Of a stretch of DNA of 64,000 nucleotides, positions 10,543 through 63,757 are shown piece after piece. Within the stretch, counting starts at the first letter, position 1. Every line of letters begins with the position of its first letter. A model generated the notes under the pieces. The model was not told the origin of the DNA, searched no databases, and saw only the letters and a program-made list of their open reading frames with translations. Origin of the DNA: a virus. Its lineage: Duplodnaviria > Caudoviricetes. A program made the position numbers and the translations under genes. The stretch spans positions 32,001-96,000 of IMG/VR virus record IMGVR_UViG_2816332336_000005; one strand, given 5' to 3'.

Positions 10543-10779
10543 TTAGGCTGTTTTTTGTTCACTTTTGTGACCACAATCAATAAAAAAAATAACCTCAAAC
10601 TGTACTTCTAATGTTTCGCATATTTCTTTCGCTACTTGCGGACTTGGGTTTCGATTACCACTCTCCAGTAGGGAGATGTAAGACACCGCTTTATTAATTT
10701 CTCGTGCAAGACCTCGTTGAGAAAACCCTTTTTTTATTCGAGCCTGAGCAAAATCATGTACCTTAACCTTTATCTTCAT
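10543..10779 (-). CDS. Cro-like XRE HTH regulator
   Basis: ARIKKGFSQRGLAREINKAVSYISLLESGNRNPS; divergent from the repressor. Confidence 0.85.
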   Translation of the reverse strand: MKIKVKVHDFAQARIKKGFSQRGLAREINKAVSYISLLESGNRNPSPQVAKEICETLEVQFEVIFFIDCGHKSEQKTA

Positions 10780-10917
10780 TGTCACCATCCTTTCAACTGG
10801 TTCCTTATGTGACCATAATAACATTGAATGTAACTTTTTGCAACCGTTTTTGGTTCTTTTTGAAAACAATTGTTTTCATTCGTGAACATGGTAAAATAAA
10901 ACTAATTGTGCTCACAA
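10565..10917. promoter_or_regulatory. Genetic-switch operators, consensus TTGTG-N2-CACAA
   Basis: TTGTGACCACAA 10565-10576, ATGTGACCATAA 10807-10818, TTGTGCTCACAA 10906-10917. Confidence 0.6.
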
Positions 10918-10943
10918 ATGTTTACTAGAAAGGAGGAGACTCC

Positions 10944-11573
10944 TTGGATTTCGGTAAGTACCTAAAAAATATTCGGGAAAGTCGTTCCCTTTCTGTTAGG
11001 GAGTTAGCCAAAAGATCCGATGTGTCCCATTCCCATATTTCTCAAATCGAGACAGGTCAAAGAGGTATTCCAAAACCTGATACTATAAAAAAACTGGCTG
11101 ATGGGTTAAATATTCCCTTTGACGAACTGATGCAATACGCCGGATATATAGAACAATCTACTTATACTAATCAGGAAGAGTTTGATTCTTTAAATAGTAG
11201 CAGTGAAAGCCTCTCTAAAGCTGGTCAGAGAATCAAGCTGTTACGTGAAACAAGAAAATGGTCCCAGTTATTATTGTCTGAAAAACTTGGTATAAACAAT
11301 AGCGTTCTATCAAGAATTGAAGCTGGAAAGCGTGATGTAGAAGATTATTTGCTTAATAAAGCAGCAGATATTTTTGATGTAACATCTGATTATTTGCTCG
11401 GCAGGACAAATGATCCAAGCCCCAATAATGCGAAGTATAATGACAATGATTCGAATATAGGTCTAGCCTTTTCCGATGGTGGAGAAACAGAACTTACTGA
11501 GGAAGAAGAGTTATACCTTAAAGAGAGCTTAATGCTATTTAGAAGAATGAAAGAAAAACGTTCAAACAAATAA
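10944..11573 (+). CDS. Immunity repressor (ImmR/CI-like) with two XRE HTH domains
   Basis: Two HTH_3-like domains; divergent from Cro and upstream of ImmA. Confidence 0.88.
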   Translation: MDFGKYLKNIRESRSLSVRELAKRSDVSHSHISQIETGQRGIPKPDTIKKLADGLNIPFDELMQYAGYIEQSTYTNQEEFDSLNSSSESLSKAGQRIKLLRETRKWSQLLLSEKLGINNSVLSRIEAGKRDVEDYLLNKAADIFDVTSDYLLGRTNDPSPNNAKYNDNDSNIGLAFSDGGETELTEEEELYLKESLMLFRRMKEKRSNK

Positions 11574-11618
11574 TAGAACCTTTTTAGCCCTAAGGGCTAT
11601 TATTTTCAACTATAGATA

Positions 11619-11632
11619 CGAACATACGTTTG
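11619..11632. promoter_or_regulatory. SOS (LexA/DinR) box upstream of ImmA
   Basis: CGAACATACGTTTG versus Bacillus consensus CGAAC-N4-GTTCG. Confidence 0.7.
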
Positions 11633-11649
11633 AGGAACGAGGGGACATC

Positions 11650-12282
11650 ATGGATTTTTCACTTTATAAGACAATGCCATTAGAAGATTGGATTAACTCA
11701 ATTTATCTCCAAAACTCTATTTGTACTCCTGATGATCTTGAAATTGAACAGATTTCATCTATCTTTGGAGGAGAGGTTATCTATCTACCAACAAATTCTC
11801 ATGCCAGATGGATTGATGATGGAACTACTGAATTTCTTATAGTGGTGAATAGTCGTTTAGATGAGATAGCTATACGTGGTCAATTCTTTCATGAACTTTG
11901 TCACCCCCTTCGACACTCGGGAAATCAAAAAGTACTTCCCCGAGCATTCTGTGATTTACAAGAGGCACAAGCTTTTCATTTTCAATTGTACTCTTCAATA
12001 CCGTTTTATATGGTCAGAGAACTCGATCTCCCTCTGTATGAAAAAGACATATCTCAATATATAAGTCACACTTTCAAAGTGCCCATTGAACTTGCCACAC
12101 ATCGCTTTAAACAAATCAAAGCACGCATTCAACAGGAAGAATATCGACTCACTATTTCTACCCATCTTCAGGAATGGTATCGAAAATCTATTCCAGAAAA
12201 CTGGTCAGACGAGACGAAAACACTTTTCCGTCTGGCACTTAAAAGGAAGTTTGAAAAAGAAAGAGAAGTTGTCCTTAGCTAA
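11650..12282 (+). CDS. ImmA/IrrE-family metallopeptidase (anti-repressor)
   Basis: FFHELCH HExxH motif followed by QEAQA; lies between repressor and integrase. Confidence 0.9.
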   Translation: MDFSLYKTMPLEDWINSIYLQNSICTPDDLEIEQISSIFGGEVIYLPTNSHARWIDDGTTEFLIVVNSRLDEIAIRGQFFHELCHPLRHSGNQKVLPRAFCDLQEAQAFHFQLYSSIPFYMVRELDLPLYEKDISQYISHTFKVPIELATHRFKQIKARIQQEEYRLTISTHLQEWYRKSIPENWSDETKTLFRLALKRKFEKEREVVLS

Positions 12283-12378
12283 AAGTGGCTGTTTATCACA
12301 CTCTTTTTATAGGTTCTTTATGATTCCATTACTCTTTTAAAACGTAAGGAATTACTACATATAAAATCTGAAAATGAG

Positions 12379-13569
12379 GTGGAGAGATTGGCTAGCATTG
12401 AAAGACGGGGTAAAGACTCTTTTCGTTTGGTTGTGGAAGTTGGCTATGATGCAAACGGCAAACGAATTAAACGCACAAAGACTATTAAAGGTGTAGGTAA
12501 ACGTGAGGCAGAAAAAGAATTGGCCAAATTTATCATGGAAGTTGAGTCAGGAGAATACATTGCTCCAGAAAAAATGACATTAGCTACTTTTGTAGATGAG
12601 TGGAAAGAAAAATATGCTAAAAGGGAGTTAGCTCCTAAAACATTAGAGAATTATCTTATCCAAATCAATAATAGAATTCTTCCTGAATTTGGGCATATGA
12701 GATTAGATCAAATAAAGCCACTCCATATAATCACCTTCATTAATAAGCTTCAAGGTGAAGGTATTAGGAACGATAACAGAGAAGGAAAGCTTTCTTCTAG
12801 TATGATCGAATACATCCATAAAGTTCTTAAAAATATTTTCAATCGTGCTGTAGAATGGAAAGTCATAAAAAAACACCCGATGGAATCCTTAAAAAAGCCT
12901 AAGGTTGAACAAGAAGAAATGTCAGTTTATGAAGAAGAAGAGATTCGACTGCTCTTTATAGCACTAGAGAAAGAATCTTTAATGTGGAGAATCATGGTAA
13001 CCCTTGCTCTTACTTGCGGTCTGAGAAGAGGTGAATTACTTGCCTTAGAATGGGATAATGTGAACTTCGAGGAGAGTTATATCTATATTAAACATTCACT
13101 ATCCTATTCCAAAGAGTCTGGATACCTAATCAAAGAGCCTAAGACAAAAAACTCCAAAAGAAAAGTATCTATTCCTTTAAGTCTAATACCGGACCTAAAA
13201 GAATTAAAAAAGCAAGCAATGAAAGATCGGCTTAAAGCAGAGGAACTATGGGAAGGTGGAGAAAGATTTTTTGTATTTACTTCTTGGCATGGTAAGCCTC
13301 TATATCCATCAAGCGTAAAAACATGGTGGTCACGATTTACAAAAAGACACGCATTAAGATATATTCGTTTTCACGACTTACGCCACACATCAGCTACATT
13401 ACTTATCAACCAAGGTGTACACACTAAGATAGTTAGTCAAAGATTGGGACATGCGAAAACATCTACAACTAATGATATCTATGCTCATGTATTACTTTCT
13501 GCTGATAAAGAAACAGCCAAACATTTTGATTCTCTCCTACAAAATATATCAGTCCCCAAAAATGCATAA
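12379..13569 (+). CDS. int: Tyrosine integrase
   Basis: GLRRGELLAL, FHDLRHT, RLGH and IYAH catalytic R-HxxR-H-Y residues. Confidence 0.95.
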   Translation: MERLASIERRGKDSFRLVVEVGYDANGKRIKRTKTIKGVGKREAEKELAKFIMEVESGEYIAPEKMTLATFVDEWKEKYAKRELAPKTLENYLIQINNRILPEFGHMRLDQIKPLHIITFINKLQGEGIRNDNREGKLSSSMIEYIHKVLKNIFNRAVEWKVIKKHPMESLKKPKVEQEEMSVYEEEEIRLLFIALEKESLMWRIMVTLALTCGLRRGELLALEWDNVNFEESYIYIKHSLSYSKESGYLIKEPKTKNSKRKVSIPLSLIPDLKELKKQAMKDRLKAEELWEGGERFFVFTSWHGKPLYPSSVKTWWSRFTKRHALRYIRFHDLRHTSATLLINQGVHTKIVSQRLGHAKTSTTNDIYAHVLLSADKETAKHFDSLLQNISVPKNA

Positions 13570-21076: not shown

Positions 21077-22106
21077 CTGATTTCCGCCCCTTTCGTTTCT
21101 TTCTTTTCTTCTTCGGCTTGTCTTCCGGTGGTGGGTCGTATTTCAACGTTGGAAGGTCGTCCGTCGCGCTCAACGTAAGTGACATCGTATGTTTGCCGCT
21201 CTCAAACGTGTGACTATCGGTTGAAACGTAGTAACCCCCGATTATCTCCGTCATTGACTCTTGTACGTAGACGCCTACCCCCGCGTACACGGTGTCAATC
21301 CCTAGCGCATTGACGGTCGCCTCGTCGTGTATGGTTCCGAGGTCTTTTAGGAGCTGTTTCGCTAACTGCTCGATTTGGGATCGGGTTTTATCCGAGTCAG
21401 CACTTTCGAGGTGCTGCATGATGCCGAACCGTTTTATGAGTGCGTCGTTTTTGACTACAGCCACCAACGGCTTTTTCTTGTCATCCCCGCCGGTCACTTT
21501 GACTTGCGTTCGTAACTCTTCGATCGACTGCGAGTATGACGCATCCAGTATATTAACGCCGTTTTCGAGTACCCACCGAACAGGCTGTTCTTTTCGCGAT
21601 AACAGATTAAACTTGCCTTCCTTCGAGCAAATAAAAAAGCGCCGTCCGGTCTGCTTCTGCGTAACCGTTAGCGCTGTTATCATCATGTCCCATATGGATT
21701 TATTCCGTAGTACAAGCTTTGGTATTACGTATCCTGTATCGTCAATTTTACCGACTGCAATTCCGAACTGTTTGCATAGTTTTTGTGCGATGGCACTCGC
21801 CTTCAATCCGCGGAATATCTGCGTGTCTTGATTCTTCGCAAGATAGATATTATCGTCGTATGCCGTAACGCTCATGATCCCTCGATCATTGATATTATGC
21901 TTGAACGTCAGACCCCGGAATAGTTCGCGTCCATTACTGTAGAGACGTAACTCCCTGCCGAGTTCTACGGGGACAGCTTTTTTACGGCCGTCCACCGTAT
22001 TTACGAAAGATATTTCTAGGGTACGGGCTGGCTGCGTAATATCGCCGGACCATGTAGCACTTTGAACAACCATAGGCGCGCCGTCATAATGCACTTCCCA
22101 CGTCAT
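21039..22106 (-). CDS. XkdQ/YqbQ-like baseplate hub
   Basis: TWSGDITQPARTL, TAYD...YLAKN, HTMSLTL. Confidence 0.88.
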   Translation of the reverse strand: MTWEVHYDGAPMVVQSATWSGDITQPARTLEISFVNTVDGRKKAVPVELGRELRLYSNGRELFRGLTFKHNINDRGIMSVTAYDDNIYLAKNQDTQIFRGLKASAIAQKLCKQFGIAVGKIDDTGYVIPKLVLRNKSIWDMMITALTVTQKQTGRRFFICSKEGKFNLLSRKEQPVRWVLENGVNILDASYSQSIEELRTQVKVTGGDDKKKPLVAVVKNDALIKRFGIMQHLESADSDKTRSQIEQLAKQLLKDLGTIHDEATVNALGIDTVYAGVGVYVQESMTEIIGGYYVSTDSHTFESGKHTMSLTLSATDDLPTLKYDPPPEDKPKKKRKKRKGRKSVVDEILKKTPRA

Positions 22107-22783
22107 ACTAACACCAACTTCTGACCCGGCTTTATTTTGTTGGGATCGGAACCAACAACGGCTTTGTTCTTGGCGTAGATATCCCGTGACTTAAGCCCGT
22201 ATCTAGCCGCGATCACGGACAGGCAATCGCCTTTCTTTACGACATATGGCTTCGGAATCTGCTTCTTACCGCCTCTTGCGGCCGCCTTTTTCACTTTCGC
22301 CGTGACTGCTGTACCGTTGCCTTTCTTCGCGCCCATGTCGACTTGACGGATGCTTGTAAACTTGTACTCTTTGAGGTCGAGATCATAGTAGATATCACCG
22401 GGCGCACCGTGTTTTTCGGGCACGATATCGAACTTACGGATGGTGACCGCATAGTTTATCGGGGTTCCCGTAATCGTCAGGCGGCACGGCTTCCGGGAGT
22501 CGCGCCACCTCTCTAGCATCTCTCTAGCTGACCACGGATCGGGAAAGCCTTCGTACTCGCAATAGGACGGATGGTAGTCGCGAGGAAAGAACGATGAAAA
22601 CGAAAAGTCTCGCAACTTGGGATTACCGATAATGGTAAATTCGCCTAAGTGCGAGACTTCAACGTCTTGATAGCCGAAATCACTCAATATTTTGATAGAC
22701 TCCGGATTAACCGGAAGTTGCAGGCGTTCCGCCCCGTTATTGTAAGAGAGCCAGAATTGAATACCGTTTGTCATCGTCATCAC
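22103..22783 (-). CDS. XkdP-like tail tube initiator with LysM
   Basis: LPVNPE..., LDLKEYK, C-terminal LysM YVVKKGDCLSVIA...IKPGQKL. Confidence 0.9.
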   Translation of the reverse strand: MMTMTNGIQFWLSYNNGAERLQLPVNPESIKILSDFGYQDVEVSHLGEFTIIGNPKLRDFSFSSFFPRDYHPSYCEYEGFPDPWSAREMLERWRDSRKPCRLTITGTPINYAVTIRKFDIVPEKHGAPGDIYYDLDLKEYKFTSIRQVDMGAKKGNGTAVTAKVKKAAARGGKKQIPKPYVVKKGDCLSVIAARYGLKSRDIYAKNKAVVGSDPNKIKPGQKLVLV

Positions 22784-22805
22784 CTCTTTTACACTTGCTC
22801 GTTAA

Positions 22806-24764
22806 TTAACAAACCTCTACCAACCGTTGCGCTATACCTAGAGTAATCTTGTCAATATCAGCTTCTTCTCTTACAGTCGCATGCACATTAATCGTAATAT
22901 TATTAGAAGCATGACTAGAACCACTTTCGCTCACAGGTTCTCGTCTATCGACAGGTGGCTCAGACGCCTCTTCCTTGCTGGCTCGGTTCTCCTCTGCGGT
23001 CATTACCCTTTCGCCTTTATGCAAACGAGCTTGGTAGCCGTCAAATGGCACGTAGTCAAGGCCACTGTAGTGAGAACCATCGTCCCCGACGCCTATATTG
23101 CGACGCTCACGAAAATCTCTCATCTTCTCTTGTTGAAGCGAGTAATCCATTTCGACTGCGGTTATTTTCGGGATATTGAGCGTGAACTCCTCGTCACTGA
23201 AAGGCATTTTAAAGCTAAACGCCTGATTCATCGCGTCAATTAGCGTGTTCAATTTCCCGATTACCCAGTTCACTCCGGTCGCGAACCCGTTTTTGATAGT
23301 GACCCACATGGAATGGCCCGCTTCTTTTACGGTCTCCCAGTTTTTAACGAGTAGATATCCTGCGCCGATTAACGTACCTATCCCGACTACTACAAGCCCT
23401 ATCGGGTTAGCGCTAGCTGCGGTATTAAACGCCCATTGTGCGGCTGTTGCCGTTAACATTACGGCCTTATAAGTAGCCCATGCCGTAGTAGCTCCGACAA
23501 CCAATGGTCCCACGATTTCTAAGACGTCTTTAGTTGTTTTCCCCCACTTTTGCGCCTCTTTACTTCCGAACCACTTGTTGAAGACAGAAGCCGCATTTGC
23601 TCCTTTATCTGCGAGGTCTCTTAGGGTAGGAAGCATCGGTGTGAATATTTCTATCTTTAACCCTTCCAGCGCGGATTCCAACTCAACAAGCGAGCCGTTA
23701 AAGTTATCGAGTTGGATTTTCGATACTCTTCCGGCTGTCCCGGCGCTATTCTCCAGCTCTTTCGTAAACTTCCGTAGCTTATCGGGGCCCGCGTCCATTA
23801 ACGCTAGAAATCCGCTACCAGCTTCCATACCCGCGATTATACCAGAAAGCGCCGTTTTCTGTTCGCTGGTCATGCCTTTCATCGCGTTCTGGAGGTCTCC
23901 AAGGATCGTGGCAAGCGATTTCATCTTGCCTCCGCTATCAAACAGTTTAACGCCAAGCTTATCGAACGCTTCTGCCGCTTCTTTCGGAGGTTTCGCAAAA
24001 CGGGCGAATAGTCCCCGTAACGTAGTACCCGCTTGTTCCGCTTGGATACCCGCATTACCGAGAATACCTGCCGCGGCAGCCGTTTCTTCTAACGACACAC
24101 CGAGCGCTTTCGCCCAAGGAGCCGCGTACTTCATCGTGTAACCGAGCATTTGAAGGTCAACGTTAGCTGACGTAAAGGCCTTCGTAAGCACGTCGGCCAC
24201 ACGTCCTGTATCTCCTGCCGCGATACCAAAGCCGGAGAGGATATTCGAAACGATATCGGCGGTTGTTCCGAGGTCTGTCTGGCCCGCCGCAGCCGCATCG
24301 AGAAGCCCGGGCATGGCCGAGATTATCTCGTTGGTCTTATAGCCCGCCATCGCGAGAAACTGCATACCTTCGGCGGCTTGGCTTGCGCTAAAGACCGTAG
24401 AGGCGCCGAGTTCTTTTGCTTTCGTGGTTAGTTTCGCCAGGTCTCCGGCGCTAGCGCTTGAAAGTGCTGCTACACGGGACATTGAGCTTTCGAAGTCAGC
24501 CGCCGTTTTGATTCCGTCAAAGGCCGTACCGACAGCGACTACTGCGCCCGCCACCATTTTAAGCTTGCCGAGAAGATTCGGAAGTCCACCCGAGAAATTG
24601 TTTAGCGATTGAGTTGCGGCATTCTGAGAATTACGATAGGAGCCGGTAGTTGCTGCAATCTTTTTCACCGATAAGTTCGTCCGATCGAGTTCCGAAGACA
24701 CTCGGCGGAGGGTCGGGGTCATCACGTCCACAATCCGTAACCGGCCGACTAGATCAAACGCCAC
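22806..24764 (-). CDS. Tape measure protein (TP901 family)
   Basis: FSASQAAEGMQFLAMAGY core motif; ARLHKGERVMTA. Confidence 0.93.
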   Translation of the reverse strand: MAFDLVGRLRIVDVMTPTLRRVSSELDRTNLSVKKIAATTGSYRNSQNAATQSLNNFSGGLPNLLGKLKMVAGAVVAVGTAFDGIKTAADFESSMSRVAALSSASAGDLAKLTTKAKELGASTVFSASQAAEGMQFLAMAGYKTNEIISAMPGLLDAAAAGQTDLGTTADIVSNILSGFGIAAGDTGRVADVLTKAFTSANVDLQMLGYTMKYAAPWAKALGVSLEETAAAAGILGNAGIQAEQAGTTLRGLFARFAKPPKEAAEAFDKLGVKLFDSGGKMKSLATILGDLQNAMKGMTSEQKTALSGIIAGMEAGSGFLALMDAGPDKLRKFTKELENSAGTAGRVSKIQLDNFNGSLVELESALEGLKIEIFTPMLPTLRDLADKGANAASVFNKWFGSKEAQKWGKTTKDVLEIVGPLVVGATTAWATYKAVMLTATAAQWAFNTAASANPIGLVVVGIGTLIGAGYLLVKNWETVKEAGHSMWVTIKNGFATGVNWVIGKLNTLIDAMNQAFSFKMPFSDEEFTLNIPKITAVEMDYSLQQEKMRDFRERRNIGVGDDGSHYSGLDYVPFDGYQARLHKGERVMTAEENRASKEEASEPPVDRREPVSESGSSHASNNITINVHATVREEADIDKITLGIAQRLVEVC

Positions 24765-38342: not shown

Positions 38343-38555
38343 TTGCAAATCCGGGTAAAACTTGACGCTATCTTAAAAGAACGTGGGATCACTCAACGAG
38401 AGTTCTCCCGCATGACAAATATTCGATTCCCTACCATAAACGGCATGTGTAAAAATGAGACTCAGCGTTTGCAACTCGATAACCTTGCGAAGATATGCGA
38501 AGTGCTTGGCGTTGAGATTACGGATGTACTCGAGCTTGTGGATGAACGTCTCTAG
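38343..38555 (+). CDS. Cro/C1-type HTH regulator
   Basis: LKERGITQREFSRMTNIRFPTIN...LAKICEVLGV. Confidence 0.88.
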   Translation: MQIRVKLDAILKERGITQREFSRMTNIRFPTINGMCKNETQRLQLDNLAKICEVLGVEITDVLELVDERL

Positions 38556-57344: not shown

Positions 57345-57503
57345 CATTTCGGACACCGGTAGCCCCGCGTCCGCGAGACGGCATGAACGGTCGTCTACTA
57401 GAGTGGCTTGCGCCTGCACCCCACAGGTTTACGACAGGCATACGGGGCGCCTCGCCTTCTTCGTCCACACCGCCTTGCCGACGCGGGAGGTCGGCTTGTT
57501 CTC
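57345..57503 (-). ncRNA. Putative structured non-coding RNA/leader
   Basis: GC-rich intergenic stretch with GCCGAC/GTCGGC hairpin and long-range GCCCCG/CGGGGC pairing. Confidence 0.4.
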
Positions 57504-58028
57504 TTACGCGCTGTACACCGCAAGTGATTTCGCTACGTTCTTCTTTTCTAGCCGTAATGCCCGCAATTCTGCGTTCAATTGCGCGATATACAGGTCAATA
57601 CCGTTTATAAGCACCTGACACGCGTTTATGGTCGCTGTACTTCGAGCCCGTTCACGCTTTAAGACAATGCGCGACCTCTCAACCATCATTTCCGCAATTG
57701 TAATGCGGGTCTTTCTACTCAACGATGACTCCTTTCGTTCGAGCTTCCGCAACTCTTTGGTAAGATAAATACATACTTTATCGCGTACATCCGGCGTCGG
57801 TTTAGTGTATTGCATGACCGTGACTACGAGGTCAGATGACTCGTGAAGGATGATTCCGATTTGACCACGGGCGTACAACCGGCCCGGCTTGCCGTACTTA
57901 TCTATCGTTGTGCTTATGAACATTGCTCGCGACAGTTGTTTCCGAATCCATTCGGCTGCTTTCGTTTGACTTACGTTGAATCGTTCGACTGCGCGTTTGA
58001 TCGCGTGAGATGAAACGGTGAGATTCAT
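57504..58028 (-). CDS. Phage hypothetical protein (RelE-like N-terminal motif plus coiled coil)
   Basis: VSSHAIKRAVER...LVVTV. Confidence 0.65.
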   Translation of the reverse strand: MNLTVSSHAIKRAVERFNVSQTKAAEWIRKQLSRAMFISTTIDKYGKPGRLYARGQIGIILHESSDLVVTVMQYTKPTPDVRDKVCIYLTKELRKLERKESSLSRKTRITIAEMMVERSRIVLKRERARSTATINACQVLINGIDLYIAQLNAELRALRLEKKNVAKSLAVYSA

Positions 58029-58174
58029 CCGAGCCGCACCGCCTTTCCGAGCAAGGTAGATGAGGTGGATAAGGTAATCGGAATATAGTCCGCAGGATCA
58101 TCATAGGGCGGGAAACCTCCGTTGTAGATATATTCGATATTTTCTGATTGCTTACGTTTAGGCATCGGGATCAT
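58025..58174 (-). CDS. Small hypothetical protein
   Basis: MIPMPKRKQS... first gene after an AT-rich promoter region; ATGA overlap. Confidence 0.5.
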   Translation of the reverse strand: MIPMPKRKQSENIEYIYNGGFPPYDDPADYIPITLSTSSTLLGKAVRLG

Positions 58175-58360
58175 CTCCGTTTCAAGAGTAATTATTTCGC
58201 TATGTTTAACAGAACGTTCTGTATAATGACAATTAAAGATGGTTAAGATTTTGTAAGGACCACTTGTTATAATTGAGAACAACTTAGAAGTACTCTATAA
58301 TGACAATAAGAAAGAGATACGACGTGCATATGCTCGTACGTATTAATTTCTTAGGTTTTG

Positions 58361-58954
58361 TTAGACAATCCGTGGTAGGGTAGTTTGACAAAAAGACCTA
58401 AATCGTGTGATGGAACGTCTATGTGAATCGGGCTTACCTCCAAAGAGTTGCGCCAACAACTCCGAAAGAGCCGAATCATTATAGAAACCATCAGACCAAG
58501 CGAGTAGGATCGCTTTCTTTCTCGAATCGCCCTTCGCCAAAAGGGCGATTTTTTCATTTATTGATTCTTTAATAATCATTTCTTGCTCTGTCTCTCTAAA
58601 GACATCTGCTAACGTGTCAATTATCGTATTACCTTCGTCGTCAATTTCTCTTTCTAGTGGGATGTTATCAGTTCTATTGTATTTCCTTCTCTTTATAAAT
58701 TTTCTAAAACATCTTTCTAAATTAAATCTTGCTAATCTGCTAAAGGACCCTTTTTCTACATCGAAGTCTTTTATTGTCTGATCTAAGGCGTCTATCAACT
58801 CCTTTGTTAAGGAAGCTTCATTCTGTACCTTGTACCAGTTCCTATTAACGTAGTCGTTTATTATAGGAATGAAATCCTTATAAACTAACTCTTTGGATTT
58901 TTCGCAGCCTTTTTGGGCGGCTATTGCGATTATTTCTATTTGGTTGTGGTTCAA
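58361..58954 (-). CDS. Phage sigma-factor-like protein
   Basis: AAQKG...IKDFDVEKGSF region-2-like motif, C-terminal helical domain. Confidence 0.7.
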   Translation of the reverse strand: MNHNQIEIIAIAAQKGCEKSKELVYKDFIPIINDYVNRNWYKVQNEASLTKELIDALDQTIKDFDVEKGSFSRLARFNLERCFRKFIKRRKYNRTDNIPLEREIDDEGNTIIDTLADVFRETEQEMIIKESINEKIALLAKGDSRKKAILLAWSDGFYNDSALSELLAQLFGGKPDSHRRSITRFRSFCQTTLPRIV

Positions 58955-59070
58955 ATTCTACGCCTCCGTTTTAAGTAATTTTCCCTTATACTACTAATAG
59001 GGGAATGCTTGGTTTAAAATTGGGACATCTTTCTAAGAAAAATTTAAAAAGTCGTAATCAGAGGTGCCAT

Positions 59071-59328
59071 ATGACCTATAAAGTCGGAAGGTGCCGCTTG
59101 TTTGAACGGTTGAAAGTCGCTGATATGACGCAGGCTGATCTCGCGGAAAAAATTCAGATGAAACGCCAGCAGTTATCTGACTACGCGAATAACCGAAATG
59201 TCATGTCGTTGTCTAACGCGAAATCTATTGCGCACGCCCTGGGCTGTCATATCGACGATCTGTACGAGTGGGTCGAGATACCTCCCTCGGAGCGAAACCG
59301 TAACAACAATCGGAGCCGAGAAGAGTAG
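59071..59328 (+). CDS. XRE-family repressor
   Basis: MTQADLAEKIQMKRQQLSDYANN...IAHALGCHIDDLYEW; divergent from the lytic operon. Confidence 0.88.
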   Translation: MTYKVGRCRLFERLKVADMTQADLAEKIQMKRQQLSDYANNRNVMSLSNAKSIAHALGCHIDDLYEWVEIPPSERNRNNNRSREE

Positions 59329-59355
59329 CGGAAGTCTCCGCTCTCTCACCGACTT

Positions 59356-59377
59356 TTGTACCGAAGTTTCGGTACAA
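59356..59377. repeat. Perfect 10-bp inverted repeat (terminator or operator)
   Basis: TTGTACCGAA-GT-TTCGGTACAA. Confidence 0.65.
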
Positions 59378-59524
59378 TCTTTTTTAGTGGTTGCCCAACT
59401 AGCTGGCTCCTATTGCTTTCTTGTTTTTATTGTATACCCAGTAAAGGCTAATTCTGCTACTAGGTTTATAATTTTGATTTTTCCCGCTTTTTGTCGAATT
59501 TAGGCGAAACAAAGGAAAAAACAC

Positions 59525-59553
59525 AAAAAAAAGACACCCTCTACAGGTGTCTT
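59525..59553 (-). terminator. Terminator after the aimP-like gene
   Basis: AAGACACC-N6-GGTGTCTT with a T tract on the minus strand. Confidence 0.8.
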
Positions 59554-59569
59554 AAATAGGTTAGTAGTA

Positions 59570-59713
59570 CTACCAACCTCCTCCAACTATTCTGGAAGTT
59601 ACATATGCCACGCTCTCTTCTGATCCATTATCATAAGTAAACTGTTCTGCCTGTGTTGGCTGAGTAAATAAAACGGAGACAATTGCTACTAAAGTAACCA
59701 TAAATGCTTTCAT
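59570..59713 (-). CDS. AimP-like secreted signalling propeptide (47 aa, not in ORF track)
   Basis: MKAFMVTLVAIVSVLFTQPTQA-EQFTYDNGSEESVAYVTSRIVGGGW: signal peptide, acidic linker, Gly-rich Trp-terminated tail; starts 1 nt after the receptor stop. Confidence 0.85.
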   Translation of the reverse strand: MKAFMVTLVAIVSVLFTQPTQAEQFTYDNGSEESVAYVTSRIVGGGW

Positions 59714-59714
59714 T

Positions 59715-61040
59715 CTAATTCGCCCCTTTTAAAATATTCAAATATCTATGTTCAACGTCCTCTCCTAAAATAGCCTTATGTTCGAAGAGGATCGCGGACA
59801 TTTTTTGATATACGGAAATATCTCTGAACTCTAGTGCTGTTTTAATGACCTCGAGAACATCGTTGAATGCTTCTTTATACTGCTCCATAGCTAGATAATA
59901 CTGTAATCTAACAACTTGAAAATTATAAAACTGACTCTTATTGTACTTATCCTTCTTTAATGCGACTGACTCAAAGATCGCGTTATATTTCTCTAAAAAA
60001 ACACCAATTCTCTCTAGCTGTCCGTTTGAAAGTAATATCTTCAGCGCGTATGGAGCTACCGTAATAATTTCATGTTCGCGATTCTTATCTACAACCAGTC
60101 GGATAAACTCACTTACCGCTTCTAGCTTACCTTCCATTACTTCGATTAACTTTTCATTCGACAACGCCGCCCAACGGTAGTAATCACCTAGGTTGTGGCA
60201 TTCCCGGAGAAGTTCTGCCGCCTTTCTGAGTTCACCCATTCCTATTAAACTTGCTGCTTGGTAAAGAAGCGACTCCCCTAGATGTTTGATATCTTTGGCG
60301 TCCTTTGCCTCTTTATAGTACGCATCTGCTACAACAGAAAGTTCCTCCCACTCTTTGGTAACATTATACCAAGTAACGACACGGTAGTATCCATCTAACT
60401 GTAGATTTACTGTTTCTGCAACACCATTTTTTTGAATGGGATATTCTGTCGGCAGGTCGTTCAATACTGCTCGTAATTTATGTAATGCTTCTACACCCTT
60501 CTTACGCATATCTCGATCGCGTTCAATCAAGAAAATTCGATGGCAGCAAATCGCATACCTTTCTGATATTTTCTTTTCGATGTTTGTAATTGCGTAATAT
60601 ACAGACGCGGCCTCTGCTAGAAAGCCATAACCGAAAAGTGTCTCTGCAAAAGCTAAGGCGGTGGACATATCCTTTATATCTATTGTTTCCAAGAATAACT
60701 CGACTACTTTACTGCAATGACTGACACCTTGCTTACAGTGAGAGCATGCCTTAATAAAATCTGTTACTTTGGGAAGAGAAACTTTGGACGAGTCCTTGAA
60801 AAGCTCTCCATAAATCATTCCATAAAAAAAATCGGCGTCTAGTCTGAACACGTGTGTCAATAAATCTACCTGGTCCATCGTAATCGCTTGCTTGTTCTTC
60901 ATAATATAAGAAAGCGATTGGGGAGAGATATACAACAATTTAGCTAGGTCTCTTTGACTAAGATTATGTGAATGCATTTGGATTAGTATTTCTTCCCTTA
61001 ATTTAAGACGATAATAAGTCAAGTCACTGGTGTCGATCAT
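59715..61040 (-). CDS. AimR-like RRNPP receptor (XRE HTH plus TPR-like helices)
   Basis: LSQRDLAKLLYISPQSLSYIM HTH and ~370 aa of helical repeats, followed by the propeptide. Confidence 0.82.
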   Translation of the reverse strand: MIDTSDLTYYRLKLREEILIQMHSHNLSQRDLAKLLYISPQSLSYIMKNKQAITMDQVDLLTHVFRLDADFFYGMIYGELFKDSSKVSLPKVTDFIKACSHCKQGVSHCSKVVELFLETIDIKDMSTALAFAETLFGYGFLAEAASVYYAITNIEKKISERYAICCHRIFLIERDRDMRKKGVEALHKLRAVLNDLPTEYPIQKNGVAETVNLQLDGYYRVVTWYNVTKEWEELSVVADAYYKEAKDAKDIKHLGESLLYQAASLIGMGELRKAAELLRECHNLGDYYRWAALSNEKLIEVMEGKLEAVSEFIRLVVDKNREHEIITVAPYALKILLSNGQLERIGVFLEKYNAIFESVALKKDKYNKSQFYNFQVVRLQYYLAMEQYKEAFNDVLEVIKTALEFRDISVYQKMSAILFEHKAILGEDVEHRYLNILKGAN

Positions 61041-61082
61041 TGGTTATCACCTGCCATCAATTATTCGAAATAGTATAATCAA

Positions 61083-61142
61083 AGTATAATTCACATTATG
61101 TGTATTGTCAACACATTATGTGAATGAAGAATACATTATGTG
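61083..61142 (-). promoter_or_regulatory. Consensus sigma-A promoter of the aimR-like gene overlapped by three operators
   Basis: TTGACA-N17-TATACT (61111-61083); (C/T)ACATTATGTG at 61092, 61112 and 61132. Confidence 0.8.
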
Positions 61143-61204
61143 ATGTATTATATTTAAATATGTGTTATGATGAATATAAATTTAGTAAAGGAGAGATATT
61201 CCAG

Positions 61205-61423
61205 ATGAAGAAGGAAATTGAACTACAAGGAAATACATTTAAAGAGTGCTTAGATATTATGAAAGCAGAGAAGAAAATAAAAACTTATAAGGAACTAGCC
61301 GAGCTGTCAGGCGTGAAGGAAACCACTCTCAGCATGCGCCTTACGCGAGGAAATATGAACCTGAGTGACGTTGTTACCCTACTCGAAGCTCTTGACTATG
61401 AAATCATATTTCGTAAAAAATAA
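61205..61423 (+). CDS. Small XRE-like HTH regulator
   Basis: TYKELAELSGVKETTLSMRL...LLEALDYEI; divergent from the aimR-like gene. Confidence 0.8.
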   Translation: MKKEIELQGNTFKECLDIMKAEKKIKTYKELAELSGVKETTLSMRLTRGNMNLSDVVTLLEALDYEIIFRKK

Positions 61424-62397
61424 TTATTACCTTTACAAAAATTTATCTTAATAAAACTTTTTTTATCTGTAAACACATTTTTTAACACATGATTTAATTC
61501 CGCCTTATTTTTTATTTCGTTTGGGTCCTTATAACGAATCGGATACCCCACGACGTTAACCGTCATATATCCCGACAGCCCTCCGACGACCGCCCGTTTC
61601 ATCTTCTGGCCCGCCTCGTCATGATCCGCCATCACCCCGATAATCTCTATCGGGCTCTTCCGCAAAGCCTCCGCCTTCTCTTCGCTGAACACCGATCCAC
61701 CTAACGCTACCGCCGGCACTCCCGCACTCCACAGATACATCGCGTCAATCTCGGATTCCACAAGCACTACCCCTGTGATTCTCTGCTTATAAACGATATC
61801 CAGCCCGTACACCATTTCACGTATAGGCCGCCCTCCCTTTGCGTACCAGAACGTCTTTTCGTCAACTTTTCGATATTTAACGTTTCCGAGCGTGCCGTCC
61901 GCGTTAAACCAAGGAATAGTAACCGCGTTAATCCTCGGATCATAGCCCGTTCGGAACAGATGTTGTATCTCACCGGCTATACCTCGCGAAGCTAAATACG
62001 GATGATCCCTACCTAGGTACGGTTCGTCTAACGTCTTAACTCGCGGCTGATCTATACGTAATCGCCCCGACAAGTCCAACGTAAGAGCCTCGGGGTCAAC
62101 CATTCCCTCCCCGTACTTCCACCGTAAGTAATCCTGCGTCTCCTCTTCCGTTTCCTCCCGCAAAAACGCCAGCAACTTCACGATCCCACCACGTTGATAA
62201 TCCGGGTCCTTCGCGCCTAAATCCGACCAGTAGCCGGCTTTTGCTATGTTACGTGGGTCGTTACTGTCACGTAACCAAACGTAGAAGGACGGCGACCGAT
62301 CCCAACGGAAGGGACTGGCCGCAAGCAGCTTATCATCCGTCCACGTTGCGGCTGTCCACGAAAACTGTTCGAGTTCGGCCCGAATATCTATCTGCAT
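61396..62397 (-). CDS. DNA primase (Toprim)
   Basis: YLASRGI, IPW, VKYR, VESEIDAM, MADHDEAG, KDPNE. Confidence 0.88.
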   Translation of the reverse strand: MQIDIRAELEQFSWTAATWTDDKLLAASPFRWDRSPSFYVWLRDSNDPRNIAKAGYWSDLGAKDPDYQRGGIVKLLAFLREETEEETQDYLRWKYGEGMVDPEALTLDLSGRLRIDQPRVKTLDEPYLGRDHPYLASRGIAGEIQHLFRTGYDPRINAVTIPWFNADGTLGNVKYRKVDEKTFWYAKGGRPIREMVYGLDIVYKQRITGVVLVESEIDAMYLWSAGVPAVALGGSVFSEEKAEALRKSPIEIIGVMADHDEAGQKMKRAVVGGLSGYMTVNVVGYPIRYKDPNEIKNKAELNHVLKNVFTDKKSFIKINFCKGNNYFLRNMIS

Positions 62398-62410
62398 CTA
62401 TACGTCCTCC

Positions 62411-63757
62411 TTAAAAAGGCAGCTTAAACTGATCTGCGGCCGCCTCTCCGCTTGGTAGTTCGCGCACAAGCCCGTAGTTCGGCATGTAAACGACTTCTAA
62501 CGTGACACCTTCGCCTCCATTGCGCCCTTTGTTTAGCTGTATAACCCCGATCCCATCCAGCGTATCTATTCCGATAGTTAGTGCCGAGTCTTCGAGAAAC
62601 GACTTACTCTTTTTCAGCTCGGCGCGTGTGGGCGGTCTAAGTTCGCGATTACCCTCGTCGTCCTTGTCATCCCGGACCTCTTCCGCCTGTGTAATGCCGT
62701 GGATAACGCACTGATATCGACCTGCCAACGCCCTGATTTTGTTCGAAGTCTCGGTTGCGTCTCCTCCGGTTGTCTTAGACCGGTTCGCCTCGTAGGTCAT
62801 GTAATAGTACGGGTCAATCACAACCACGTCCGCCTTTGTTGCCACGATGTCAGCTTCTAGGTCGCGAACTCTACGGGATGAGAAGTCGATATCGTCTACC
62901 GCACGAACAACGATGGTGCCTGGTATAATTTCGTTGATCTCCGTTAAAAATTGTTCGAACCCCTGTTCAAACTCTTCCGTTAATTTCCCATTAAGCAGCG
63001 CTCTATTTTCGAAACCTACCTCGTAATCCACACCGTCAATGTTTGCGTTAACAGCTCCTTGGCGCGCTGAGATAGATGAATAGGCACGGGCCATCCATTC
63101 GAATCGCGACATTTCCATCGCCCACACAAGTACGTTTGCTCCCTGGGCCGCAGCCTCTATCGCTTCTTCCATCGTAAAGATTGATTTACCTCGACCACTG
63201 CGCCCGTACCACGTGTAGACATTGCCGGAAAGGTACCCGCCTATCTCTTTATTAATCGTAGGAAATTTCGACTTCCATATCTTAAACGACGTTCCTTCCT
63301 TACGTTTTCGATATTCGTCTAAGAACGTTACCGTATCACGTTTGATATCCGTTCCTACCTTTGATCGTGTAGCCGTTTCCGCCCTGATCCGTTCCGTTTG
63401 CTCGATGAGCCACGCGGCAAACTCTTCCGTCGATAGTTCCGTAAACTTATCGCCTACGTCCCGTCCGGTTAAGAACGAATGTAGCCGTAACTTGCCCGCA
63501 TTGTTCCTTATCTTACGCGCCATGTATTCGAAGGAATCGCCCACTTCCGGCATGTACGTGAAGCCCGCACACTCAGCAACGACAGTTCTATAATCCGGGG
63601 CCTGCCCTCCGTTGCTATCCGCGTAGGCCTTTATAAATCGGTAGGCCTTCCGTTCGGCTTCCGTAGGGAAATGCTCGGCCCGAATATCGTATCGAAGAAA
63701 TGCGCCCGTATCGTTTGTGTCAATCACTTTCGATAGAAACGATTCACCGTATGCCAA
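62411..63757 (-). CDS. DnaB-like replicative helicase
   Basis: GRSGRGKS Walker A, AMEM, VVIDP, ITQA, KGRNG. Confidence 0.9.
   Translation of the reverse strand: MAYGESFLSKVIDTNDTGAFLRYDIRAEHFPTEAERKAYRFIKAYADSNGGQAPDYRTVVAECAGFTYMPEVGDSFEYMARKIRNNAGKLRLHSFLTGRDVGDKFTELSTEEFAAWLIEQTERIRAETATRSKVGTDIKRDTVTFLDEYRKRKEGTSFKIWKSKFPTINKEIGGYLSGNVYTWYGRSGRGKSIFTMEEAIEAAAQGANVLVWAMEMSRFEWMARAYSSISARQGAVNANIDGVDYEVGFENRALLNGKLTEEFEQGFEQFLTEINEIIPGTIVVRAVDDIDFSSRRVRDLEADIVATKADVVVIDPYYYMTYEANRSKTTGGDATETSNKIRALAGRYQCVIHGITQAEEVRDDKDDEGNRELRPPTRAELKKSKSFLEDSALTIGIDTLDGIGVIQLNKGRNGGEGVTLEVVYMPNYGLVRELPSGEAAADQFKLPF

Follow-up and report, generated by a model that had tools for sequence, protein, structure and literature searches.

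Arbitrium, the textbook example of communication between phages, has been linked with Bacillus phages and with receptors of the AimR family. In about 80% of arbitrium systems a short repressor with a single helix-turn-helix (HTH) lies immediately downstream in the opposite direction, and, in the sections of the same preprint used here, antisense RNA is probably not the effective output of arbitrium phages, the small antirepressor protein AimX being so instead (Kabel et al. bioRxiv 2025). A related logic is found in the Alo systems of Paenibacillaceae. As described in the parts of Voichek et al. (2020, PMC7425212) on which we draw, C-terminal AloP fragments are detected in supernatants, and the gene that directly follows aloP13 is activated by AloR13 and turned off again by a 6-mer from the C-terminus of AloP13. 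Bernard et al. (2023, PMC10075063), in the portion used here, count AloR as an RRNPP family that has one or more viral members and describe a layout of quorum-sensing system (QSS), opposed c1 repressor and operon. Here we analyze a receptor and propeptide pair in a 64-kb stretch of viral DNA (the window), bases 32001-96000 of an IMG/VR provirus record of 105,175 bases in total; all coordinates below are in window numbering. Our preferred reading, to which we assign a probability of about 50%, is that a three-gene cassette of the Alo branch of RRNPP systems was acquired by a Brevibacillus laterosporus prophage and placed in its early-gene switch region.

The open reading frame (ORF) list, the sequence and a consensus scan together give this order on the minus strand: a promoter-like site, the receptor ORF, the propeptide ORF and a terminator. 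The promoter-like site of this putative operon (TTGACA-17-TATACT; 61083..61111, minus strand) is an 11/12 match from the consensus scan only. The receptor gene (59715..61040, minus strand) encodes 441 aa, with an N-terminal XRE-type HTH and a C-terminal superhelix resembling tetratricopeptide repeats (TPR), and its product is AloR-like. One base past its stop codon lies the ATG of the propeptide gene (59570..59713, minus strand), which encodes 47 aa with a signal-like N-terminus and the tail ...YVTSRIVGGGW. The intrinsic terminator of the operon follows (59531..59553, minus strand), with a 9-bp stem and a T run. The third gene of the cassette, identified by ORF and sequence, encodes a small HTH protein of 72 aa (61205..61423, plus strand) and is divergent from the receptor gene. 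Beyond the terminator, a non-coding spacer (59385..59530, minus strand), a candidate site for a receptor-dependent promoter, separates the cassette from a gene for an 85-aa XRE-family protein with a single HTH (59071..59328, plus strand). This gene is convergent on the propeptide gene and divergent from a gene for a 197-aa sigma-70-like protein (58361..58954, minus strand; weak matches), the first co-directional gene downstream of the cassette and the putative target of its regulation.

A first-pass annotation of the same DNA had named most of these elements, and a communication module made of a receptor and a secreted propeptide on a prophage is supported. The 47-aa secreted-type propeptide directly adjacent to the receptor, the terminator at 59553-59531 and the oppositely oriented XRE gene (HTH_3, E 7.5e-11) all stand. 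The annotation had also placed some 190 bp of non-coding DNA with hairpins before the XRE gene. We do find an interval without a convincing ORF, which measures 241 nt between the stop codons of the propeptide and XRE genes and ~200 nt when counted from the terminator, but its hairpins are the two terminators, that of the propeptide operon and the XRE gene's own (59356..59377, plus strand).

The cassette, consisting of the 72-aa HTH gene, the receptor and the propeptide, forms a low-GC island (28-45%) among neighbors of ~50% GC, and the XRE gene itself has a GC content of 50%. The whole block is kept in three of three related IMG/VR proviruses (L002-L004, on contigs of 55-63 kb). Their receptors are 91-98% identical to that of the window, i.e. 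they vary by 2-9%, and the mature propeptide region is identical in all three. Judged by this conserved block and by signal-like ORFs beside distant receptor homologs (see below), the arrangement exceeds chance.

The claim of an HTH/TPR-like receptor is upheld by three lines of evidence. Residues 25-72 match Pfam HTH_3 (E 8.6e-07; 29.3 bits against a cut-off of 23). The single receptor sequence matched none of the Pfam TPR models at E<=1, and a profile built from 29 family members, the window receptor included, matched TPR proteins (LapB at 2.6e-07, consensus TPR at 4.3e-07). The AlphaFold model of the receptor (predicted local distance difference test score, pLDDT, 92.2; predicted template modeling score, pTM, 0.87) is an all-helical repeat beyond the HTH. 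When this model was compared with known structures (Foldseek, VIA), mostly generic TPR proteins were matched. The RRNPP members reached Z scores of 15.9 (NprR), 15.4 (pLS20 Rap), 14.5 (phage Rap), 12.5 (PlcR) and 12.3 (AimR), and the AimR structure 5zvv (root-mean-square deviation 17.4) ranked below NprR, Rap and many unrelated TPR proteins. Because RRNPP members are interspersed with unrelated TPR proteins in this ranking, the predicted fold supports a TPR receptor and cannot pick its family. A PDB sequence search with the single receptor protein gave nothing significant, and the ESM Atlas returned only generic 'HTH transcriptional regulator' clusters.

At the sequence level, the arbitrium label of the first-pass annotation turned out to be wrong. 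As a test for AimR we used NCBIfam NF038310, with its curated cut-off of 70 bits; B. subtilis scored above the cut-off as a positive control, and the receptors of three viral loci discussed below (L062-L064) scored 213-240 bits. The window receptor gave no match to this model at E<=1, and a six-frame search of the whole provirus gave it 13.4 bits, over model positions 4-41 (the HTH) only. Weak AimR matches were found for 2 of the 29 aligned family members, the best at E 0.00029. Alignment of the 29-sequence profile with phi3T AimR by hhalign gave a probability of 4.4% over 70 columns, and BLASTP of the receptor against the same protein gave E 0.28. With 13.4 bits against a required 70, and with hhalign and BLASTP also failing, AimR membership is rejected.

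The comparison with Alo receptors came out differently. A tblastn search of plasmids found receptor-family matches in 15 Paenibacillus, 4 Brevibacillus and 1 Arthrobacter records. Gene 21494-22867 on a plasmid of P. polymyxa ATCC 842 is followed by an ORF that is letter-identical to AloP11 (Voichek Table S1), and we thus take this gene to be AloR11. Against AloR11 the family profile aligned end to end (hhalign probability 100%, E 6.4e-40, 402 columns), and the window receptor alone gave a BLASTP match of E 2e-12 across its first 160 residues. Since there is full-length profile homology to AloR11 and the AimR tests failed, the receptor is filed under the Alo family of Paenibacillaceae. We are highly confident that the window holds an Alo-type receptor-peptide pair.

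Within this family the phage receptor stands well apart. A word-based search found two close relatives only, one of which, the nearest named relative, is from Brevibacillus laterosporus. With an exhaustive HMMER search, 57 representative relatives came up at E<=0.001, mostly ~415-470 aa long and 20-28% identical, and identity to the nearest chromosomal representative is at most 27%. The family is present in 62 of 401 sampled Bacilli genomes, with 13 matches in Brevibacillus dissolubilis alone. Among 50,697 phage records, a set that may lack those nearest to the window, nucleotide and protein searches with the module or the receptor gave no match at E<=1e-5 nor at E<=1, and a scan of genome contigs with the receptor gave no confirmed relative. 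In a quick tree (support by the Shimodaira-Hasegawa-like approximate likelihood ratio test, SH-aLRT, only), the four phage receptors sit on a long stem of 2.15 substitutions per site inside a 13-row group (support 96) together with B. dissolubilis paralogs and a B. laterosporus plasmid copy, and the branch with Paenibacillus and AloR11 lies apart from this group. The receptor is a new, divergent, phage-borne member of the Alo family.

Several of the B. dissolubilis matches form tandem pairs, and in L009/L010 and L012/L013 a receptor and a 28-aa propeptide (..DDFGMNW or ..DDFGPGW) are directly followed by a second receptor. This second receptor is without a recognizable propeptide, which recalls the Alo13-Alo14 arrangement of P. 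polymyxa.

The tree also bears on a host-directed alternative, in which the cassette is a moron: a captured Alo system that tunes host behavior (sporulation, other Alo circuits) by lysogen density and has no role in lysis-lysogeny. The nesting of the receptor among chromosomal and plasmid Brevibacillus paralogs is what this alternative would predict, and the GC content of the cassette is likewise host-like and unlike that of the phage backbone. Precedent exists as well, in that Alo peptides also act on Alo loci other than their own and genes resembling spo0E are under the control of several Alo systems (Voichek PMC7425212), and Bernard et al. (2023, PMC10075063) propose that a number of phage RRNPP systems hijack host sporulation. 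However, no spo0E-, abrB- or rap-like gene adjoins the cassette, and the phage receptor clade is so divergent from the host copies (stem 2.15; <=27% identity) that cross-talk with the host is not obvious. Two further points against this alternative come from related phages and from the position of the cassette, as discussed below.

The propeptide can be read as MKAFMVTLVAIVSVLFTQPTQA followed by EQFTYDNGSEESVAYVTSRIVGGGW, with a putative cleavage site, placed by eye, between the two. It is the only ORF in the window with a G-rich tail like those of AloP or AimP, it is one of 11 signal-like small ORFs there, and no second AloP-like propeptide was found in the window. The propeptide of L003 carries a sole change, in the signal part. 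In 14 of 37 loci of distant receptor homologs, a signal-like small ORF starts between -24 and +81 nt from the receptor stop, and tails at such loci include DDFGMNW, DDFGPGW, NWLGTGW, YEEGPRW, YGHGIGG and YTHGMGG. Next to the Brevibacillus relatives of the receptor, the propeptides encoded by the following gene end in ..FGMNW, ..FGPGW, ..LGTGW and ..HGIGG. Published AloP tails, as far as we compared them by eye with the window propeptide (Voichek Table S1), include ..VGGS, ..IGGA, ..IGGF and ..HGRGG, and Alo16 contains HGLGGW (Voichek et al. 2020, PMC7425212). A search for exact tails such as GGGW gave no match in the supplements of Voichek et al. or in the part of the Bernard supplement covered. 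By analogy with AloP, the active peptide is most likely a short C-terminal stretch ending IVGGGW, which bears out the earlier placement of the mature peptide near the C-terminus of the propeptide.

Downstream of the operon terminator lie the spacer and the opposed XRE gene. The start of this gene was set at 59071 within a longest frame that opens at 59005, on the basis of a GAGGTG Shine-Dalgarno sequence, and it matches the 85-aa form in L003. The 85-aa protein is probably the switch repressor of this phage lineage. The sigma-like protein beyond it matches NCBIfam PRK08295 at E 8.8e-06, far below the cut-off, and PHROG 24888 (function unknown) at E 1.8e-30.

For this region the first-pass annotation had proposed arbitrium's AimR and AimP together with a non-coding aimX RNA antisense to the repressor mRNA. 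Several features would fit. A receptor, a peptide and an opposed small HTH gene make up the commonest arbitrium layout (Kabel et al. bioRxiv 2025). Because the XRE terminator has its T run on the plus strand only, it should let a minus-strand transcript pass, so that this could read through the XRE gene. A search for an AimX-like ORF found none that is both preceded by a Shine-Dalgarno sequence and intact in all four proviruses, so the output may be RNA only. Nevertheless, the antisense RNA is not borne out: a strong terminator precedes the spacer, the promoter-like site within it is a weak 9/12 match, Rfam gave no match at E<=1 across 58000-61600, and no covariation was found at this locus. 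The spacer fold has a z of -2.5, which is accounted for by the two terminators, and spacer conservation is about equal to that of the flanking genes. The A/T-rich inverted repeat 59472-59484 / 59514-59526, at first a candidate operator or RNA stem, was dropped, with 0 of 19 pairs compensatory among four sequences. Minus-strand ORFs of 41, 50 and 58 aa exist and could encode a small-protein output, although in the window they all lack a Shine-Dalgarno sequence and each is not intact in at least one of the four proviruses. In addition, the three tests of AimR membership failed, and stop-codon and recoding mutants in arbitrium phages indicate little role for antisense RNA and a 29-80-aa AimX protein as the effector (Kabel et al. 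bioRxiv 2025). Because that preprint argues, in the sections used here, that the small AimX protein is the output, we give the antisense-RNA reading low odds and consider it, with its AimR receptor, very unlikely. Candidate outputs of the Alo-type cassette may be read-through into the sigma-like operon, a small protein, or a route through the 72-aa HTH protein.

The last of these routes draws attention to the region upstream of the receptor. Three palindrome copies, (C)ACATTATGTG, lie at 61092..61143, between the receptor gene and the small HTH gene in the region of their divergent promoters. The exact palindromes, at 61093, 61113 and 61133, have a 20-bp spacing across the two divergent promoters, and a 15-nt inverted repeat (61089-61103/61111-61125) overlaps them. 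The palindrome cores are kept with small changes in L002-L004. Across the window, 7 matches with at most one mismatch were found against 3.6 expected, and 8 of 100 shuffles reached 7, which is not significant alone; the clustering of the palindromes, not their window-wide number, is the informative feature. They are probably operators.

This suggests an alternative in which the targets of the receptor are the three CACATTATGTG palindromes at its own divergent promoters, so that the 72-aa HTH gene and/or the receptor operon is regulated and the HTH protein relays the signal. The palindromes overlap both divergent promoter-like sites at their 20-bp spacing, are conserved in the three related proviruses and are the sole clear operator-like repeats in the module. 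Moreover, the AimR cassettes of L062-L064 also have a small divergent HTH gene, and a small HTH gene, a receptor and a peptide together resemble one mobile unit. On the other hand, the small HTH proteins of the Alo-type and AimR cassettes are not detectably similar, and the 72-aa HTH protein, as an autoregulator internal to the cassette, could just as well be what binds the palindromes. The precedents of AloR13 and AimR also point elsewhere, since in both the receptor acts on a gene downstream of the peptide gene (Voichek PMC7425212; Kabel bioRxiv 2025). We therefore regard regulation through the upstream palindromes as unlikely.

The 72-aa HTH protein itself gives weak matches to HTH_26, HTH_3 and CI-repressor models (E 0.003-0.005, below the Pfam cut-offs). 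The 72-aa form is also found in L003, and the gene is missing from cassette-free relatives of the phage backbone. Its 3' end overlaps the 3' end of the primase gene (61396) by 28 nt. The last ~25 codons of the primase (61396-61470) lie within low-GC cassette DNA, and insertion of the cassette appears to have replaced the original primase C-terminus.

A role for the cassette in the phage is suggested by comparison of the switch locus among relatives. Homologs of the XRE gene were collected in 15 viral loci, which were sorted by hidden Markov model searches for the receptor family and by ORF maps. A backbone of helicase, primase, opposed XRE and sigma-like genes is shared by 10 of the 15. Three of these loci (L052-L054, the three related proviruses) carry the Alo-type cassette. 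Four (L055, L057, L058 and L059) have the same backbone, with no family match or other receptor-sized ORF in the stretch listed. The remaining three (L062-L064) have the same backbone and, between the XRE and sigma-like genes, a receptor of 405-406 aa, a propeptide and a small divergent HTH gene. The other five loci (L056, L060, L061, L065 and L066) have other contexts, and two of them are cut by contig ends.

The receptors of L062-L064 are true AimR proteins, at 213-240 bits on a model with a cut-off of 70, and their propeptides end in ..SDKVGG or ..AYANKVGG, with SDKVGG occurring twice in the L062 propeptide. L062 recurs unchanged in a Neobacillus niacini genome, and its helicase, primase and XRE proteins are 60%, 41% and 59% identical to those of the window. 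With both types of cassette, the sigma-like gene is the next co-directional protein-sized gene past the propeptide gene. Because the switch locus of one lineage thus holds nothing, AimR-AimP or an Alo-type cassette, an arbitrium-like role for the Alo-type cassette is plausible, through guilt by position, not proof. In this form the lysis-lysogeny quorum system of the first-pass annotation survives: the layout and the presence of AimR-AimP at the same locus in related phages make it plausible, but its AimR identity does not hold.

The AimR-AimP cassettes lie at L062:1854-3466, L063:1331-2930 and L064:1926-3143. In L062 and L063, a small ORF between aimP and the sigma-like gene contains a common stretch, ..ISELE.CLLST...LYLIQAKRAST.., and is a candidate AimX. 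The sigma-like gene differs between relatives: L003 retains the XRE, propeptide and receptor genes, its upstream region is unrelated, and its sigma-like allele is a different one of 214 aa, similar to that of L062 (E 2e-25), while the 197-aa allele of the window recurs in L057. A mosaic breakpoint falls exactly at the XRE start codon (window 58955-59071 versus L003:7971-8102).

The same comparison bears on the host-directed moron. Related phages hold a genuine arbitrium system at the very same locus, and the cassette lies inside the early or replication region, beside the conserved XRE/sigma-like pair of the lineage. When these points are set against the host-like features of the cassette, a purely host-directed function appears improbable.

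Under the preferred reading, that of an acquired Alo-branch cassette in the early-gene switch region, the cassette probably lets the phage sense its own density. Receptor and propeptide would be co-transcribed from the promoter-like site at ~61100. The propeptide would be exported by Sec, its signal cut after ..PTQA, and the remainder trimmed extracellularly to a C-terminal peptide ending IVGGGW, as AloP and Phr peptides behave (Voichek et al. 2020). After re-import, the peptide would bind the TPR groove of the receptor. Receptor free of peptide would activate a promoter just downstream of the propeptide terminator, within 59530-59385, and the resulting minus-strand transcript would cross the XRE gene in antisense and enter the sigma-like gene and then the early or lytic genes that follow. 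As peptide builds up, it would switch this transcript off and favor lysogeny or its maintenance. The transcript steps are drawn from AloR13/spo0E, AimR/aimX and the comparative anatomy above. That the cassette feeds the phage's lysis-lysogeny or induction decision we rate just short of an even chance; the specific promoter and direction are doubtful.

Several observations weigh against this reading. The clear operator-like repeats of the module lie only upstream of the receptor and none lies downstream; in the spacer, no dyad was found fit as a receptor operator, save the A/T-rich repeat that lacks covariation. A strong terminator stands between the propeptide gene and the spacer. The sole promoter-like site in the spacer, TCGACA-18-AATTAT at 59497-59468, is the weak 9/12 match, and a scan around it finds 20 sites against 9.7 expected. 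Three RNA-seq runs of the same species label gave 0 reads on 57500-62500 and thus provide no test. The role of the XRE protein as prophage repressor is one that we infer. The 197-aa sigma-like protein of the window is not detectably similar to that of L062 (E 1.2), and only the L003 allele is (2e-25). Finally, the primase gene is equally convergent on the XRE gene in cassette-free relatives, so that the insertion point may be merely a permissive intergenic site.

The wider phage setting adds some context. The 105-kb record looks like two adjacent prophages, which bears on the first-pass annotation's placing of the module and a micropeptide array in one phage. The module-carrying phage spans from about 14 kb of the window to the end of the record, with nearly all genes on the minus strand. 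A lysogeny module at 10543-13569, with a 108-aa HTH protein, a 209-aa double-HTH repressor, an ImmA/IrrE peptidase and a 396-aa integrase, abuts the lysin end of this phage; the integrase, double-HTH repressor and ImmA-type peptidase (window 10.9-13.6 kb) point away from the lysin at 15 kb. The extreme right of the record holds a second tyrosine integrase (L050:8639-9676; ~104.1-105.2 kb), and no recognizable CI-like repressor was found near that integrase, the module-carrying phage's own. At 38364-38510 (plus strand) there is a small HTH ORF (open frame 87 aa) in this otherwise minus-strand phage, with a weak match to the AimR model in the HTH only. Between 39409 and 54430 the phage encodes an N6 DNA methylase, a class II-type ribonucleotide reductase and a family A DNA polymerase. 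The best sequenced relative of the polymerase is that of Bacillus phage Mgbh1, at 54% identity only, and there is therefore no close sequenced phage in the collection searched.

Prophage-borne systems of the AloR family and the layout of QSS, opposed repressor and operon have already been cataloged computationally, and our finding extends these known ideas. A published description of this particular locus was not found in the literature searched, a search that stopped short of the complete RRNPP_detector tables; no 441-aa B. laterosporus entry occurs in the passages of Voichek Table S2 searched, and the AloR-AloP pair that Bernard et al. (PMC10075063) report, in the portion used here, for a B. 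laterosporus plasmid is not this prophage locus. What may be new is that Aim and Alo cassettes replace each other at a single phage switch. We tentatively propose, at somewhat under even odds, that the density input is a swappable three-gene cassette taken from the RRNPP family of the host clade: AimR-AimP in Neobacillus (Bacillaceae) and an Alo-type pair in Brevibacillus (Paenibacillaceae). The same phage backbone with no cassette, an arbitrium cassette or an Alo-type cassette is a natural experiment, which makes it possible to test directly whether peptide receptors from separate families can stand in for one another at a lysis-lysogeny switch and also bears on what the real output is: antisense RNA, a small protein, or read-through into the sigma-like gene. 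If the input is indeed swappable, an Alo-type system does the job of arbitrium here, this would be the first non-AimR family to control phage lysis-lysogeny at a site that can be compared directly with an arbitrium locus, and it would be the switch, not the receptor family, that defines function. Independently of this, the locus provides a defined peptide-receptor pair (tail ..IVGGGW) for Brevibacillus laterosporus, a biocontrol species in which prophage induction affects strain stability.

Set beside the published Alo systems, as they are described in the parts of Voichek et al. (2020, PMC7425212) on which we draw, the window has a receptor of the same HTH and TPR-like class of 440-490 aa and a propeptide that is likewise a short ORF with a signal-like N-terminus and a G-rich tail, directly past the receptor gene. 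At 47 aa this propeptide is within the published range of 32-50 aa, and it starts 1 nt past the receptor stop. The setting in Paenibacillaceae hosts with many paralogs per genome, and the full-length profile homology to AloR11, are also those of Alo. Unlike the published systems, the window cassette lies in the early-gene region of a prophage, not on the chromosome beside spo0E; beyond it come an opposed XRE repressor gene and then a sigma-like gene; its receptor clade is very divergent; and its peptide ends in W after GGG.

Compared with arbitrium, as described in the sections of Kabel et al. (bioRxiv 2025) used here, the window receptor is not AimR, and no convincing AimX ORF was found. Compared with the order aimR-aimP-aimX-aimC-aimL, the gene divergent from the window XRE gene encodes a 197-aa sigma-like protein, not a small cro-like HTH protein (aimL), and the window has one more small HTH gene, which diverges from the receptor gene and comes with three putative palindromic operators. 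AimP tails are G-rich like IVGGGW, but the window tail ends in W. As in arbitrium, however, the window module is a phage-borne receptor with a secreted propeptide, and its 85-aa XRE protein (AimC, 80-140 aa) is encoded immediately downstream in the opposed direction and is followed by a divergent early-gene operon. A receptor-propeptide pair beside an opposed small XRE gene is thus what this Alo-type cassette has in common with many arbitrium phages (Kabel bioRxiv 2025; Bernard 2023, PMC10075063).

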